Source: a virus (Duplodnaviria; Caudoviricetes). From it: 64,000 nucleotides of DNA. The stretch lies in IMG/VR virus record IMGVR_UViG_3300029286_000011. One strand, 5' to 3'. This document shows positions 47,151 to 53,157 of the stretch, piece by piece (position 1 is the stretch's first letter; each line of letters opens with the position of its first letter). The translations under genes and the position numbers were made by a program. The notes beneath the pieces were generated by a model. It was given only the letters and a program-made list of their open reading frames with translations. It did not search any database and was not told the DNA's origin.

Positions 47151-50100
47151 ATGAGTCTCGCACTAACTACTGACACCAACATCAAGCCGGCTGATTTTGA
47201 CATGTTGATGGATACGTGGAGCCGGCACATGGCCGGGCGTAATCTATACAACCTATCGCCGTTGCTGCCAATGATGTTGAATCTCAGCGGCGAACCCTTG
47301 ACCCTCCAAGATCACTATCCGTTTGAACCTCTCTTCGCTACGCATCTGCCCAAGAAGACCACCGTCATAGCCGGTCGTCAGGTGGGCAAGACACAGTCGT
47401 TGTCCGCACAGGGTGTCGTGCAGACCTGTAGTCTTCCGTATTTCAAAACGTTGTTCATATCGCCGCTGTACGAACACATACGGCGATTCTCTTCCAACTA
47501 CGTTCGTCCTCTGATCGACACGTCGCCGATCCGTCACATGTTTATTGACGCCAGGACAACGTCCAATGTTTTGCAGCGGTCGTTCCTTAATCAGTCGCTT
47601 ATGTTCTTCTCGTATGCCTTCCTTTCTGTTGATCGTATACGTGGAATACCGGCCGATAAGAACACCTACGATGAATCGGCACGCGGCGATAATACATATG
47701 TCAGTACACCGTCCGGCCAGGTACTCATTCGCGACGTAGCTGTAGGCACTCCGATAAAAGCTTTCTCGGAAGATGGTCATTTGATATGGACCCATGTCAT
47801 AAAGAAGTGGTATGCTGGTCGTCGTCGCTGCTACCGACTTCTACTGACAAATGGGAGATTCGTCGATGCCACAGCAGAAAGCTGGGTGGGCACAGCCACC
47901 GGATGTTTTAGAGTTTCCTCGATCATCAAAGCTGTCGCCGACTCAGGCAGCCAAACAAGCAAAAATTGTCAGGCAGGCTGTACAGCGGAATCAGCTGAGT
48001 CAACTACAATGGCAGACAGTGCTCGGAACACTGCTAGGGGACGGACACATAGCGCTGAGAGGAAGCTACCACGCAGTACACGGGCCCAGCCAACAGGCAT
48101 ATCTCTGGCACAAGTACACAATATTGTCCGAGTTCGTTTACGGCGCACCTTCCAGATCGAAGAAGAGCAAACAAGGCTACTGGTCGGGAAGATTTTGGAC
48201 TGCCGAGGTTCCGGTTTTCAAGTGCTTGCGGAGCCTCTGGTATCCAAACGGAATCAAGACAGTGACACCAAGAGCTCTGGAGATGATCGACAAGGTAGGC
48301 TTTTTGCCGACCATTGCTTGGTGGCTGGCAGACGATGGGAGCCGCTCAGGTCGAGCGGATTCACCGACGCTGATTTTTTGTACCAACGGGTTCCAACACG
48401 ACGAGGTCAGTCTTTTGAGCGAATGGATGACGGATCATGGGTATCCATCGCATGTACTGACTCGGAACGTACCGGGTTACAGACAGTACCCGATGCTGTA
48501 TGTCGAGGCTTGGGCGGCTGTGAGACTCATGGAGGATCTACAGGCACTGACGCCGCCATGCATGCGATACAAGCTCCGCTGTACTGGGCGGAACGACATG
48601 GCGACCTGTATGTTTTGCGGGAAACGGTTCCGGTTACGGATGTTGCGCCGTCGGAACGACTTACCATGGTTCCCGAACTGCCCGGACTGTGTCATGGAAA
48701 AGAAACGATTCGAAAGGAAGCGTTTTGCTACAAGAAATCGAGAGAAAATACGGCAGCGTCGTCGCAGCTATTTCGAGCGAGTTCCGGAAGCTGCGGAACG
48801 CAATCGAATGTTGATTCGACAATGGATGAGGGCACATCCAGAGAAGCTAAGGCAATACAAAGAGACTTATCGAAAGAAGCAACGAACAATACAGACTACT
48901 GTGATGCCGCCGTGCACGGTATGCGGTTGTCGGACGACAATACTCAGCAAACATGCGCGCGTCGATCGAGTGGTCTGTCCCGGCAAGTGCTGGCAGGAAC
49001 ATGCAAGACGGAAAGCAAAGAAGCGCTATTATATTCGCATGGCGCAGAAACGACCGGAGCTTCAATCAAAATATCTAACGTTGGCGCAGCGGATAGACAG
49101 CTTGTACCTGTCGAACTGCTAGCAATTGTAGATGTAGGTCTACACGACGTATACGACGTCGAGACAACAACACCACACTCTGTGCTGTTAAATAGTTGTG
49201 CATGGGCAAACTGCCAGGACATTGATCCAGCCTTCATTCCGATTATTCGTGAGACCATCTCAGGCTCGAAGAAATATGGTCTTGAGCAATTTAGCGGAAC
49301 GCCCAAAACGCTGGATGGGCCGCTAGAAAATCTGTGGATAGACGGCTCCATGGCGGAATGGTGCATCAAATGTCGCGAGTGCGGCAAATGGAATATTCCG
49401 TCACTGGACCACGACCTGGACAAGATGATAGGCCCGCGAATCATCGAACGAGAGATAAGCGAACGAGCCCCGGCTGTGGTGTGCGCTAAGTGCAGCAAGC
49501 CGATATACCCTCGAACTGGTCGATGGATACATCGTGTAGAAGAGAAGAGACTAGAGCACGCCAGCTACCACATGCCACAAATCATTTTTCCGCTTCACTT
49601 CGCTAAGCCAAAGAAGTGGAACGAACTGCTGATGAAGCGTGAAGGACTCGGCAATACACCTCCACACGTCTTCTACAACGAAGTATGCGGCACAAGCTAT
49701 GACTACGGGGCCAAGCTTGTATCTGTAACTGATCTGAAGTCTGCCGCCACATTACACGCAAACACGATTGAAGAGGCTAAGCGTGTAATGAATCAATACA
49801 CAGTGCGCATGCTGGCTATAGACTGGGGTGGCGGTGGTCAGGACCAGATCAGTTACACGGTGTTTGCCGTGCTAGGTATGCGCCCTGGTGGAAAGATCGA
49901 CGTCATATACGGGCATCGTTCGCTGACGCCACATGCGCCATTCGTAGAAGCCGACATGGCGTTGAAGATAATGAGCGAGCTCAAGTGCTCATATGCTTGC
50001 CACGATTACACCGGCGCTGGTGACATGCGCGAAGAGATCATGGTGAAGGCAGGTCTGCCTGTCGACCGCAGCTTCCCTATCGCCTACATCAGAGCCACTG

Positions 50101-50519
50101 CCGGCCCAATGATGCGGCACATACCGTTCAACGAAAGCACAGAACAACGAGATCACTACAGGCTGTGCAAAGCACGATCATTCGAGCTTACGTGCGCATT
50201 GATCAAGTTGTGCTACATAAGATTCTTCAAGTACGACTTCCTCAATCCGTCACAGACAGGGCTGCTGCACGACTTCCTGTCCTTGGTGGTGGACGACGTG
50301 TCTAGCCGAACGGGTTCAGATATTCACACCATCATACGCAACGAGAAGGCCGGACCTGACGACTTTGCAAACGCCGTCAACATAGGCGTATGCTCGCTGT
50401 GCTATCGACGCAAGCAGTGGCCAAATGTTGCCGAGATGGCAAACATCAAGATCAGTGGCCACGCCCTGTCAGTCATGCATCCGACAAGCGTCAATTGGGA
50501 CGAGATGCCTCCGCTATGA
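47151..50519 (+). CDS. terL: Terminase large subunit with intein (about 610 aa after splicing)
   Basis: GGAGG RBS; AGRQVGKT Walker A; RIRGIPADKNTYDE|CQD Walker B split by the intein; FSGTPKT; WCIKC..C zinc motif; nuclease domain LAIDWGGG; PDDFANA. Confidence 0.9.
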   Translation: MSLALTTDTNIKPADFDMLMDTWSRHMAGRNLYNLSPLLPMMLNLSGEPLTLQDHYPFEPLFATHLPKKTTVIAGRQVGKTQSLSAQGVVQTCSLPYFKTLFISPLYEHIRRFSSNYVRPLIDTSPIRHMFIDARTTSNVLQRSFLNQSLMFFSYAFLSVDRIRGIPADKNTYDESARGDNTYVSTPSGQVLIRDVAVGTPIKAFSEDGHLIWTHVIKKWYAGRRRCYRLLLTNGRFVDATAESWVGTATGCFRVSSIIKAVADSGSQTSKNCQAGCTAESAESTTMADSARNTARGRTHSAERKLPRSTRAQPTGISLAQVHNIVRVRLRRTFQIEEEQTRLLVGKILDCRGSGFQVLAEPLVSKRNQDSDTKSSGDDRQGRLFADHCLVAGRRWEPLRSSGFTDADFLYQRVPTRRGQSFERMDDGSWVSIACTDSERTGLQTVPDAVCRGLGGCETHGGSTGTDAAMHAIQAPLYWAERHGDLYVLRETVPVTDVAPSERLTMVPELPGLCHGKETIRKEAFCYKKSRENTAASSQLFRASSGSCGTQSNVDSTMDEGTSREAKAIQRDLSKEATNNTDYCDAAVHGMRLSDDNTQQTCARRSSGLSRQVLAGTCKTESKEALLYSHGAETTGASIKISNVGAADRQLVPVELLAIVDVGLHDVYDVETTTPHSVLLNSCAWANCQDIDPAFIPIIRETISGSKKYGLEQFSGTPKTLDGPLENLWIDGSMAEWCIKCRECGKWNIPSLDHDLDKMIGPRIIEREISERAPAVVCAKCSKPIYPRTGRWIHRVEEKRLEHASYHMPQIIFPLHFAKPKKWNELLMKREGLGNTPPHVFYNEVCGTSYDYGAKLVSVTDLKSAATLHANTIEEAKRVMNQYTVRMLAIDWGGGGQDQISYTVFAVLGMRPGGKIDVIYGHRSLTPHAPFVEADMALKIMSELKCSYACHDYTGAGDMREEIMVKAGLPVDRSFPIAYIRATAGPMMRHIPFNESTEQRDHYRLCKARSFELTCALIKLCYIRFFKYDFLNPSQTGLLHDFLSLVVDDVSSRTGSDIHTIIRNEKAGPDDFANAVNIGVCSLCYRRKQWPNVAEMANIKISGHALSVMHPTSVNWDEMPPL
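47676..49211 (+). mobile_element. Intein (512 aa) in terL
   Basis: Block A SARGDNTYVSTPSG; block F VYDVET; terminal AN followed by +1 Cys; inserted right after the Walker B DE. Confidence 0.88.
47866..49122 (+). CDS. LAGLIDADG homing endonuclease in the +1 frame, nested in the intein
   Basis: LGTLLGDG and WWLADDGS motifs (LAGLIDADG_2-like); basic C-terminal extension with four CxxC-type motifs; GGAG 8 nt before the ATG at 47866 (ORF track start 47851). Confidence 0.88.
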   Translation: MPQQKAGWAQPPDVLEFPRSSKLSPTQAAKQAKIVRQAVQRNQLSQLQWQTVLGTLLGDGHIALRGSYHAVHGPSQQAYLWHKYTILSEFVYGAPSRSKKSKQGYWSGRFWTAEVPVFKCLRSLWYPNGIKTVTPRALEMIDKVGFLPTIAWWLADDGSRSGRADSPTLIFCTNGFQHDEVSLLSEWMTDHGYPSHVLTRNVPGYRQYPMLYVEAWAAVRLMEDLQALTPPCMRYKLRCTGRNDMATCMFCGKRFRLRMLRRRNDLPWFPNCPDCVMEKKRFERKRFATRNREKIRQRRRSYFERVPEAAERNRMLIRQWMRAHPEKLRQYKETYRKKQRTIQTTVMPPCTVCGCRTTILSKHARVDRVVCPGKCWQEHARRKAKKRYYIRMAQKRPELQSKYLTLAQRIDSLYLSNC

Positions 50520-53157
50520 GATTGCTCAGCCATCGTGAGCTGAAGCAGACATAGTTGTGACCTGCGTCGTGCAACCTACCCGCTCGGTCTAGCATGGTCG
50601 GTATCTGGTCGAACATGCGTGGGTCGATTGGTTCCTTACCTATGCAACGATTCCACGCGGCACGGGTAAGCTTTATAGATGGTGGCTTGCCTATTACGGC
50701 ACCGGACGGCTGCTTCAACAATGCGAGTTTGCTTGAGCGACTATAGCCCTCGGTAATCAAAGGCAGTTGTTTGTTGATGACAGCCTGAGCCACAATAGAG
50801 CCTATGACTGTTGCTTTGTCGGCAACAGACTCAGTGAGCACCCTATTCAAGCCTGCAGATAATGCAGTCGTATCCACGCCAGTGTTCACAAGGTAGCTGC
50901 GCAGGTCTTTAGCCAGCTCCTGATAACGACCAAGATAGCGGTCGTCCTCTCGTCTAAAGCTACGTCTGGCCAGATCTGCCAGGTAGTTCACCAACAGCGC
51001 CCGTGCGGCAGCTATGGCCGAAGCAGGCAGATCTATGCTGTTGTATTCAGTTATGGCGATCCATCTGTCTGTGAAGACACTGGCCAGCGCAGTCAACGGC
51101 CTACCAATCGTAATGCAGTTGTTCACTGTCCGACCAGTGTTGTGAATGAGCTTGCGAAGAACTGACGTGTTGTCAGCACTGCGCAAGTCCCGTATAGCCG
51201 GCCAGTTGTGAGGCCAGCTGGAAAGCTGCTTACCTGACACAGCCGGGCAGCCAAGCCCTGCTGCCAGCTCTATAGCTGCCCAGGATGATGGGCCGCATAT
51301 ACAGATGTTGCTTGGCGCATAGTTGTAGATCGGTGCCAGTATGTTGCGCAGCACGGCTAGCAACATTGCGTACACAAGCGGTCCACATGGCCGAGTCAAA
51401 GCATAAGCATCAGATGCTGTTAGTCCAGCAGGCTGACTAAAGTCCATACAGGGTGTGTTCTCATCGGGCAGGAAGTTTACAGCCTGTGTGGTGCCGGCCC
51501 TAGAGAGACAAAAAGTAGGGAACACAATGCCAGCCAGCTCGGAGTTCCAGCCGACTGTGTCATTGCCCCGCACGCAGACAGGATTACGAAGGCCAACAGC
51601 CATATGGAACAACTGATGGCTTAGTTGCGGGTGACATTGCGGTACACCCAGTCGCGCCTGAACAAGGCATTGTTGCATCCAGTCTAGTGTGTTGCCTGCG
51701 AGCAGTCTCTTGGGTGCGCAAAATGGTACTCGTTTTCCGTAATAGCCAATGTGTCCTGTGTAATACAGCTCCCCGGTGCTGGGCTTAGTTATCGCTTTGT
51801 CCAGCACCAGATCAGCATCGATCAACATCTCCTGAGCATGACCTGAGTGCAAACACCAGTAATCACCTGTTGCAGATATCAGCTGTCCTTTTCTGGTTCG
51901 GCCACTGCTGGTCACCCAGTAAGTTGTAGGTAGAGATCTAGCCGTACGTACAAGCCTGCTCTGAGCTATGACGATGTTCGGATCGACGCCAAACTTTGGC
52001 AGGTCGACCAGTAGTTCCTCTTGTTCGTCCACACCGACCTCACGGCAGTAAGTAGCTACTGCTTGTGCCCACGGGACAGCATTTCTCCGGCACGACAACA
52101 GAAAGTTATTGGGTTCCTGGTGTCGAAGAAACGTAGCCCTATCGTCAACCTGCTGGCTGATTATGATCTTCCCGTTACTCCTGGCAGCATGGGCTACGAT
52201 GTCGGCTGTCAGCCTGTTGCACCAGAATATGAGTGTTCTATTTGTGAACATCTGCCAGCTGTAGATAGGGTGCACAGCATGACCGCGCTGAGTATAGCCG
52301 GTGTCACATAGGATCAGTGGCAGTCCTCGCGCTGACTGCTCAAGCTGTCTGATGTGCAGAGGCATTCCGTCTACGATACTGTTGATAACGACAGCACTTT
52401 TGTCCCAGTCCAATGAGCTACGACGTATGTCGGGGCAGAAGTGCAGGCCTGACTCCGTAGATGACGCCACAGACGATAGCGTGCTATGCCACACGTAATC
52501 CTTGCTGCTGGCGTCACGACCAATGAACAGAAATCGGCATATCCTGCCGGGCAAGTCGTACATAGGCAGAACAAGTACTGAGGACCAGTTGGTACCGGGC
52601 AGTACGTTGCTTTGTCGTTTATTCGTGGCTGCGCCGTCGGATCTCTCCAGCATGTTGCGCAGGTAATCTGCGTCCACATGACCCACAAGCTGGCTCAAGC
52701 CCTGATCGGCCCATGACGCCGGCAGTTCACTGCGCCAGGACAGCTTATGTATCAAGTCAGAAAGGCCTGTGTTATGATGAATGAGGCCTAATTTGGCGTG
52801 CTGCCATAGCTCGGCAGTCATTGTCTGGTTGGCTACAACATGTTGCTTGTGCGCAGCTAGAAACGATCGATGTGTAGGCAGCGCATGGCCTTGTTCGTTC
52901 AAACGCGTGATAACAGACTCGACGTCAAGCTGCCAGGCCGCACTTGCCAGTTGCAACATATCGCCAGCAAATGCACAATGACGGCAATAAGCCCACTGCC
53001 AATTGAATGGCCTGCTGTCAAAGATTTCCAGGCGACCTTGCCTACACACAGGACATTCTGCGGTAGTCGGAAGCGATGCTGCAGTGGGCCTAACGCCCAG
53101 CCCAGCCAGTACCTTAACCCAGGACACCGCTTCTAAAAACGAGCGGAGGGATACCAT
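50491..53157 (-). CDS. Large hypothetical protein with N-terminal primase-type zinc finger
   Basis: CPVC...CRHC.FAGDML at the N-terminus; degenerate P-loop-like ICICGPSS in the C-terminal part. Confidence 0.55.
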   Translation of the reverse strand: MVSLRSFLEAVSWVKVLAGLGVRPTAASLPTTAECPVCRQGRLEIFDSRPFNWQWAYCRHCAFAGDMLQLASAAWQLDVESVITRLNEQGHALPTHRSFLAAHKQHVVANQTMTAELWQHAKLGLIHHNTGLSDLIHKLSWRSELPASWADQGLSQLVGHVDADYLRNMLERSDGAATNKRQSNVLPGTNWSSVLVLPMYDLPGRICRFLFIGRDASSKDYVWHSTLSSVASSTESGLHFCPDIRRSSLDWDKSAVVINSIVDGMPLHIRQLEQSARGLPLILCDTGYTQRGHAVHPIYSWQMFTNRTLIFWCNRLTADIVAHAARSNGKIIISQQVDDRATFLRHQEPNNFLLSCRRNAVPWAQAVATYCREVGVDEQEELLVDLPKFGVDPNIVIAQSRLVRTARSLPTTYWVTSSGRTRKGQLISATGDYWCLHSGHAQEMLIDADLVLDKAITKPSTGELYYTGHIGYYGKRVPFCAPKRLLAGNTLDWMQQCLVQARLGVPQCHPQLSHQLFHMAVGLRNPVCVRGNDTVGWNSELAGIVFPTFCLSRAGTTQAVNFLPDENTPCMDFSQPAGLTASDAYALTRPCGPLVYAMLLAVLRNILAPIYNYAPSNICICGPSSWAAIELAAGLGCPAVSGKQLSSWPHNWPAIRDLRSADNTSVLRKLIHNTGRTVNNCITIGRPLTALASVFTDRWIAITEYNSIDLPASAIAAARALLVNYLADLARRSFRREDDRYLGRYQELAKDLRSYLVNTGVDTTALSAGLNRVLTESVADKATVIGSIVAQAVINKQLPLITEGYSRSSKLALLKQPSGAVIGKPPSIKLTRAAWNRCIGKEPIDPRMFDQIPTMLDRAGRLHDAGHNYVCFSSRWLSNLIAEASRPN

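Follow-up and report, generated by a model that had tools for sequence, protein, structure and literature searches.

We analysed a 64,000-nucleotide stretch of DNA, the window, from an uncultured phage (IMG/VR record IMGVR_UViG_3300029286_000011; Caudoviricetes), in which the gene for the large terminase subunit (terL) contains an insert that reads as an intein in the terL frame and as a complete homing-endonuclease gene in the +1 frame. The explanation we favour, with a probability of about 0.85, is that terL carries an intein, that the homing endonuclease has a gene of its own overprinted on this intein, and that the intein is spliced out of the protein to restore the terminase ATPase. A preliminary description, made from the letters of the sequence, had proposed a terminase frame open through a 512-residue intein with splicing blocks at either end, a double-motif LAGLIDADG nuclease behind a GGAG motif at 47866–49122 in the +1 frame, and selection that had purged stop codons from the overprinted frame. 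Its coordinates hold, both LAGLIDADG motifs were found, and overprinting under selection is supported by intein profiles, by the same layout in 13 diverged loci and by codon wobble that depends on the frame.

The terL insert and its +1-frame nuclease

A single open reading frame (ORF) occupies positions 47079–50519 on the + strand of the window, with 1146 codons and no stop. It contains a GpA-type large terminase gene (47151–50519, + strand) that matches PF05876 (GpA_ATPase) and phrog_675 (terminase large subunit); the database protein (P0003) starts at the ATG at 47151, has 1122 residues and is 100% identical. Intein-less terL alleles are common and encode about 650 residues. Alignment with these alleles places the end of the N-extein (47151–47675, + strand) at the Walker-B sequence YDE, followed by an insert of 512 terL-frame codons (47676–49211, + strand) running from Ser1 to Asn512. 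The C-extein (49212–50519, + strand) begins with the putative nucleophile Cys+1 (CQD). The insert therefore lies in Walker B at DE|C, with Ser at 47676 after YDE and Asn ending at 49211 before CQD. The comparison with intein-less terL suggested in the preliminary description yielded 105 alleles without an insert at this point, which in the main read DE|V/I/A/L-QD; the insertion is in frame and at a conserved site.

The +1 frame of the same strand contains the nuclease ORF (47851–49122, + strand; PF03161 LAGLIDADG_2, phrog_11023), which ends in a TAG at 49120–49122 and encodes 423 residues from the ATG at 47851 or 418 from the ATG at 47866. This frame is open solely from 47848 to that TAG and is dense with stops on either side (upstream at 47737, 47743, 47755, 47782, 47800 and 47845; downstream at 49129, 49135 and 49189). 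The +1-frame protein matches PF03161 with E = 2.6e-21 and 76.7 bits against a cut-off of 25, and scored 77.8 bits in a genome-wide search of the phage record. A complete nuclease ORF is thus found between an N-terminal splicing region that extends to about 47940 and a C-terminal one that starts at about 49086, in a frame different from theirs, and about 1.25 kb of the insert is dual-coding.

Both LAGLIDADG motifs are in one chain. Motif 1 (VLGTLLGDGH, 48019–48048, + strand) contains the predicted catalytic Asp64, and G59, T60, L62, G63 and D64 are invariant among nine homologous nucleases; motif 2 (AWWLADDGS, 48316–48342, + strand) contains the second predicted catalytic Asp, with W158, D161, D162 and G163 invariant in the same set, so that GT.LGD and W..DDG are shared by all. 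The Lys/Arg-rich tail of the nuclease carries two Cys4 modules, C253, C256, C277 and C280 (48607–48690, + strand) and C355, C358, C376 and C380 (48913–48990, + strand), in which all eight cysteines are invariant in the nine nucleases and may bind zinc. A PDB sequence search gave the intron enzymes I-WcaI and I-SceI as the closest solved relatives. The AlphaFold2 (AF2) model of the nuclease has a predicted local distance difference test score (pLDDT) of 83, and Foldseek matched it to I-WcaI and I-SceI with E values of 4e-10 to 4e-9 and target template-modelling (TM) scores of 0.73–0.76. We conclude from these matches and the predicted structure that the nuclease is probably a monomeric, two-motif, I-SceI-like LAGLIDADG_2 enzyme with its fold and catalytic residues intact.

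Splicing domains at the ends of the insert

The ends of the insert resemble the two halves of a Hint splicing domain. The N-terminal region (intein residues 1 to ~88; 47676–47940, + strand) contains block A (SARGDNTYV), a block B without its histidine (TAES) and the sequence G-C-F-R-V-S-S-I-I, and the C-terminal region (49086–49211, + strand) contains blocks F and G (..VYDVETTTPHSVLLNSCAWAN). A profile built from seven N-terminal regions (A2) matched the gp41-1 intein at E = 4.8e-8 and also the Spl DnaX, Ssp DnaB and Mtu RecA inteins, with E values up to 1e-5. The corresponding profile of the C-terminal 45 residues (A3) matched the Spl DnaX mini-intein (8e-10) and NpuDnaB (1.6e-9). When modelled by AF2 from a 13-sequence alignment, residues 1–95 and 478–518 reached pLDDT values of 83–93 (86–93 for the N-terminal and 83–91 for the C-terminal splicing region), with the sequence between them mostly at about 32. 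Foldseek superposed the ordered part of the model on mini-inteins with a root-mean-square deviation of 1.3–2.5 Å.

The residues at the splice junctions point the same way. Among 17 insert-bearing terminase alleles compared as proteins, the first intein residue is Ser in 14, as in the window, Cys in two and Thr in one (the fragment locus L009 starts with Cys), and the last is Asn in ten and Gln in seven. The +1 residue is Cys in 16 and Ser in one, compared with 102 Val, Ile, Ala or Leu and three Cys at the same position in the 105 insert-free alleles (Fisher's exact test, 4e-18, computed on rows that are not independent). We conclude from profiles, models and junction residues that the insert is, as far as these can tell, a true intein of class-1-like type. 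The three insert-free alleles with Cys at +1 (DE|CQD; P0041, P0093 and P0097) could mark places where an intein was precisely lost, or could be pre-adapted targets.

A group I or group II intron would provide another route for removing a homing-endonuclease ORF, here at the level of RNA, with the intein-like ends a coincidence. The type of nuclease is in keeping with this, as LAGLIDADG_2 enzymes are typically encoded by introns and the structures closest to it belong to intron enzymes. Yet an Rfam scan of 47300–49600 found no intron family, with none at E ≤ 10, and an intron has no need of an open host frame, which is nonetheless open in 13 of 13 loci. Nor would it account for the homology of the ends to Hint domains, for their wobble in the terL frame or for the Cys at +1. 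We consider an intron highly improbable.

Stop avoidance and frame-dependent selection

The dual open frames are not a product of chance. Over 20,000 synonymous shufflings of the nuclease ORF, the check proposed in the preliminary description, the terL frame acquired a mean of 15.4 stops and never fewer than four; the observed number is zero. In the third frame we counted 22 stops across the insert (47676–49211) and 20 within the nuclease ORF, where 17.9 are expected. As the preliminary description had reasoned, a terL-frame stop arises wherever a T-ending nuclease codon precedes AAN, AGN or GAN, and none of the 94 codon contexts of this kind in the window is T-ending, compared with 22% of codons that end in T elsewhere. 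Pooled over the 13 loci, T-ending codons are absent from all 1390 at-risk contexts, with 272 expected. Six loci that we shuffled individually each have no terL-frame stop against 11–19 expected, and free-standing relatives of the nuclease have 20–47 stops in the equivalent frame.

The same result bears on the integrity of the sequence, since two compensating indels in an assembly, a caveat raised in the preliminary description, could in principle have displaced an in-frame LAGLIDADG domain. Contigs from three sequencing runs (depth 14–23), possibly the window's own source, cover 47400–49500 with no mismatch and no gap, and fragments from a fourth run match the same interval equally without mismatch or gap. 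The same frame relation recurs in twelve diverged loci from other samples. Moreover, the indel explanation is implausible because indels could not yield a stop-free terL frame where about 15 stops are expected; it leaves the opening of that frame over 1.27 kb unexplained. The probability of an artefact is close to nil.

Codon wobble in the seven closest loci shows which frame is under selection along the insert. Over intein residues 1–70 the most variable position is the third position of terL codons, indicating selection on the terL frame. All three positions are conserved over residues 71–85, where both frames are selected: the splicing-domain sequence G-W/C-x-R-V-S-x-I-I is encoded in the terL frame over F-P-R-S-S-K in the nuclease frame. 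From residue ~86 to ~465 the most variable position becomes the third position of nuclease codons, indicating selection on the nuclease frame, and over residues 471–512 it reverts to the third position of terL codons and selection on the terL frame. A coarser codon-position test on six loci agrees with this switch of frame. The wobble at nuclease position 3 in the middle of the intein therefore means that the terL frame is constrained there only to remain open.

That middle, the stop-free terL-frame read-through of the nuclease gene (intein residues ~89–470; 47941–49085, + strand), accordingly carries no terL-frame wobble signature. It had been described as devoid of endonuclease motifs, and our Pfam scan of terL residues 280–680 gave no match and no such motif. 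AF2 assigned it pLDDT values of about 31–40 apart from one helix. This exception, at about 48141–48230 in the terL frame, is a confidently predicted helix and strand (pLDDT 82–85), and is probably a by-product of nuclease conservation, because the codon pattern there follows the nuclease frame only. Two further ideas did not survive. The hydrophilicity of the read-through slightly exceeds that of synonymous shuffles (mean z −1.9), but we discounted extra selection for this property because conversion of TAA, TAG and TGA to CAA, CAG and CGA (Gln, Arg) predicts exactly such a shift. We also dropped the suggestion that the +1 frame is favoured since every stop in the host frame can be avoided by a synonymous change: this is almost as easy in the other frame, where only Met before an A-starting codon is hard, and the host contexts numbered 5 versus 1, which is not significant.

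Conservation in relatives and probable mobility

The 13 loci for which DNA was available comprise the window and 12 from other samples: five loci of terL homologues (L001–L004 and L006), three reached through homologues of the nuclease (L007–L009) and four from IMG/VR (L010–L012 and L015). Their nucleases are 24–54% identical. In all 13 the +1-frame nuclease ORF was confirmed and the terL frame is continuous. Compared as proteins, no fewer than 17 diverged terminase alleles have an insert in Walker B, and on a tree of the exteins these are scattered among insert-free alleles.

We compared the divergence of the three parts. Identity of the Hint domain tracks that of the nuclease (Spearman 0.68), and neither Hint nor nuclease identity follows that of the extein (rho 0.33 and 0.21, respectively; 0.00 and 0.08 without the outlier L015); these correlations come from pairs that are not independent, which counts against taking their p-values as more than indicative. 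Because Hint and nuclease co-vary, are decoupled from the extein and occur in scattered carriers, the splicing domain and the nuclease probably form a unit that travels from one terL allele to another. A tree of 43 LAGLIDADG_2 cores places all 13 terL nucleases in one clade (Shimodaira–Hasegawa-like approximate likelihood ratio test (SH-aLRT) 97), and the label 'overprinted' requires three changes on the nuclease tree compared with 14.6 under shuffling. In-frame LAGLIDADG_2 inteins and free-standing LAGLIDADG_2 genes, including those of phages, coexist with the overprinted ones.

The nuclease ORF could instead be a decaying relic, inactive or unexpressed, in an intein inherited by vertical descent only, and eventual decay of the nuclease is what a homing cycle predicts. 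This is difficult to reconcile with catalytic motifs and eight cysteines that are invariant at 24–54% identity, with wobble that follows the nuclease frame, with the absence of a stop from that frame in 13 of 13 loci and with the sporadic distribution of carriers on the extein tree. We regard a relic as very unlikely.

The relatives provided several additional observations. Overprinted LAGLIDADG_2 relatives outside the terL clade (L016–L018, L020, L021, L027, L029, L034, L036 and L040) are shorter, with about 250–340 residues, and have no Cys-rich tail; they occupy inteins of DEAD-box helicases, of Terminase_6-type terminases, of a ResIII helicase, where the other frame is used, and of two host genes without an identification. 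One terL (L001:3001–7860; P0005) contains two inteins and so offers a natural side-by-side comparison: a canonical in-frame intein (PF14890 and LAGLIDADG_3) at the P-loop, GK|T, and an overprinted LAGLIDADG_2 intein at Walker B. A second insertion site, four residues upstream (..HN|C-x-D-E), is used in L012:3244–6579 and in P0023, P0039 and P0062. The L012 insert also has an overprinted nuclease, which belongs to the same nuclease clade as those at Walker B, and the unit seems to have moved to the neighbouring site. In L007:3217–6597, L008:3190–6579 and L009:3400–6282, gene callers reported the nuclease and a 3′ terL piece of 325–435 residues, leaving the 5′ half of terL uncalled though the frame is open throughout.

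Nuclease expression and the proposed homing cycle

A GGAG sequence (47854–47857, + strand), 8 nucleotides upstream of the ATG at 47866, resembles a Shine–Dalgarno motif, and an earlier in-frame ATG is present at 47851. An ATG with a Shine–Dalgarno-like motif precedes LAGLIDADG motif 1 in 10 of 13 loci. These motifs are only suggestive of a separate start for the nuclease, and so of the decoupling from late terminase expression that the preliminary description proposed. Alternatively, a +1 ribosomal frameshift could produce a fusion of N-extein, N-terminal intein region and nuclease, or nuclease translation could be coupled to that of terL in some other way. The nuclease ORF does open inside the translated terL message, 3 of 13 loci lack an obvious Shine–Dalgarno motif and ATG, and no internal promoter was found. 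A frameshift is harder to square with the nuclease-frame stop just upstream (47845), with an opening point that, depending on the relative, lies anywhere from 12 to 118 codons ahead of motif 1, and with the lack of an evident conserved slippery site; the ATG is accompanied by GGAG, GAGG or GGAGG in the 10 loci, several of them directly after the upstream stop. We therefore judge coupling of this kind to be improbable, although less so than a relic, and prefer independent initiation.

We propose the following cycle for the overprinted intein. A ribosome would read all 512 intein codons straight through. The first ~88 and last ~42 residues would then fold together into the Hint splicing domain, and the ~380 residues between them would be no more than another gene translated off frame, stop-free and probably disordered. 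Splicing in cis, using Ser1, the terminal Asn and Cys+1, would remove the entire insert and restore the ATPase. The nuclease most likely has a separate translation start on the terL message, either the ATG at 47866 behind GGAG or the ATG at 47851, and most likely cuts intein-less terL (DE|VQD or DE|IQD) in co-infecting phages, after which repair would copy intein and nuclease together into the cut allele. Selection holds the host frame free of stops without penalising the nuclease, because a host-frame stop needs a T-ending codon before AAN, AGN or GAN and a C-ending synonym always exists.

Several results weigh against this interpretation. Pfam intein models did not match the whole protein or its cut-out ends, and detection of the intein needed profiles built from relatives. 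The block-B His is replaced by Ser in the window (TAES), and T-x-[D/E]-[S/T] is found in the inspected loci other than L008, which has His; the penultimate His is replaced by Ala in the window and is present in only 4 of 17 alleles. Both histidines assist the splicing reaction and do not define the Hint fold. We infer splicing competence from conservation, from the conserved nucleophiles and from the essentiality of the gene, rather than from canonical chemistry. As to the nuclease, the combination of a Shine–Dalgarno motif and an ATG might occur by chance in about half of the loci, and a search for promoters and terminators gave no signal above shuffled controls. No RNA sequencing runs containing the window DNA were found, and the products of both frames are predicted ones.

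Origin of the overprinted arrangement

The preliminary description suggested that a free-standing nuclease gene invaded a mini-intein. We find this plausible and, for the terL clade, put it forward as a proposal. The nuclease belongs to LAGLIDADG_2, the intron-encoded or free-standing type, and free-standing phage relatives exist. The overprinted clade from DEAD-box helicases is, in addition, sister to a free-standing gene (L026; SH-aLRT 96). On the other side, in-frame LAGLIDADG_2 inteins exist, and the tree does not resolve which nucleases are sister to the terL clade. These two points leave room for the opposite course, in which a canonical in-frame LAGLIDADG_2 intein was frameshifted and its stops were then purged: suitable ancestors occur as in-frame phage inteins (L024, L038, L045, L046, L047 and L050), and the deep nodes of the nuclease tree are likewise without resolution. 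A frameshifted copy of the essential terL would, however, be lethal until about 15 stops had been purged, and the nuclease ORF comes with a start region of its own and with a long tail that no Hint block includes. The helicase sister pair, and the fact that free-standing relatives are common, also tell against a frameshift. We hold such an origin to be unlikely, if clearly more credible than the artefact, intron, relic or coupling explanations, and consider invasion the better proposal.

More speculatively, overprinting might be a design that stays stable through the evolution of a long-lived mobile unit rather than a short-lived stage towards a split or in-frame intein. The idea arises because splicing domain and nuclease have co-diverged to about 25% identity while hopping among terL alleles, and because the unit has reached a neighbouring site and overprinted relatives occur in helicase and other terminase inteins; we offer it tentatively, as something that is probably not the case. 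Were it true, a separate start could give the nuclease a timing or level different from that of the late, abundant terminase, and the read-through peptide, including its confidently predicted helix, might itself contribute to splicing.

Relation to known systems

An intein with an out-of-frame nuclease is a known layout, found in cyanobacterial dnaX and in cultured actinophages. Gorbalenya first put it forward in 1998 for the intein of Synechocystis dnaX (Nucleic Acids Res 26:1741), according to Phillips, DeSimone and Gogarten (bioRxiv 10.64898/2026.09.14.751524), who showed a cyanobacterial dnaX intein with an out-of-frame LAGLIDADG nuclease. The terL intein shares with it a low-confidence, disordered middle in the intein frame, Shine–Dalgarno-like motifs upstream of the nuclease, frame-dependent selection that in the overlap constrains the nuclease frame (measured there as the ratio of non-synonymous to synonymous substitution rates, dN/dS), and a sporadic distribution with intein-free alleles. 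It differs in its host, a phage terminase with the insert at Walker B rather than bacterial dnaX, and in its frame, +1 here and '+2ORF' in that preprint. Its nuclease is I-SceI-like (PF03161) with a tail of about 200 residues containing two Cys4 modules, the block-B His is absent, and the layout is kept down to 24% nuclease identity.

Out-of-frame intein nucleases in actinobacteriophages, mentioned in the preliminary description, have indeed been reported: Gosselin, Arsenault and Gogarten (bioRxiv 10.1101/2025.01.02.630785) described non-canonical inteins of these phages, proposed that a free-standing homing endonuclease invades an intein, and presented evidence of continuing transfer. Many of those inteins are in TerL, and there too the nuclease frame differs from that of the splicing domain. 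Their same-strand out-of-frame nuclease is in frame 3 and endonuclease VII-like, their LAGLIDADG and VSR-like nucleases are antisense, and the source in each case is a cultured actinophage. The terL intein, by contrast, has a LAGLIDADG_2 enzyme on the same strand, in the +1 frame, and belongs to a GpA-type TerL of uncultured freshwater phages.

Three other systems offer partial parallels. Fractured genes (Dassa et al. 2009, PMC2677866) likewise have a separate nuclease gene between splicing halves in an essential gene, but there the host is split into two ORFs and splicing acts in trans, whereas terL is continuous in 13 of 13 loci, including those divided by gene callers (L007–L009), and splicing would act in cis. 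The ShiLan-type element (Arsenault et al. 2025, PMC11855218), an out-of-frame HNH insertion into a DNA methylase of a phage, shares an endonuclease ORF hidden in another frame and a stop-free host frame; it has no detectable splicing domain, in contrast to the clear Hint halves here. I-SceI and I-WcaI, the best sequence and fold matches of the nuclease, also have two motifs in one chain, but they are products of group I introns in the rRNA genes of organelles and have no Cys-rich tail.

What is specific to the terL intein is its same-strand +1 I-SceI-like nuclease with two Cys4 modules, its insertion into Walker B of a GpA-type terminase, the lack of the block-B His from its splicing blocks, how deeply it is conserved and its occurrence in uncultured freshwater phages, in which the layout is also common and old. 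It provides a natural example of dual coding in which one frame is constrained only to avoid stops, and could reveal to what extent an intein can tolerate an unstructured insert of 380 residues and loss of the block-B histidine. The set of loci is suited to tests of the view that in the origin of inteins the splicing domain came first and the nuclease invaded later. The layout also causes systematic mis-annotation, the 5′ half of terL being absent from the gene calls of three relatives.

Genomic context

The sequencing runs are lake-water metagenomes and the phage genome record is 185 kb; a search of that record for PF14890 or PF03161 found no elements besides this one, and blastn of terL against a collection of phage GenBank entries gave no match. 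The terL gene is the sole + strand gene amid − strand ORFs (45585–47068 and 50491–53157 of the window, both − strand), and an 888-residue − strand ORF overlaps its 3′ end by 29 nucleotides. Relatives likewise have a lone + strand terL among − strand genes, with RNase H and DUF1360 upstream in L007.

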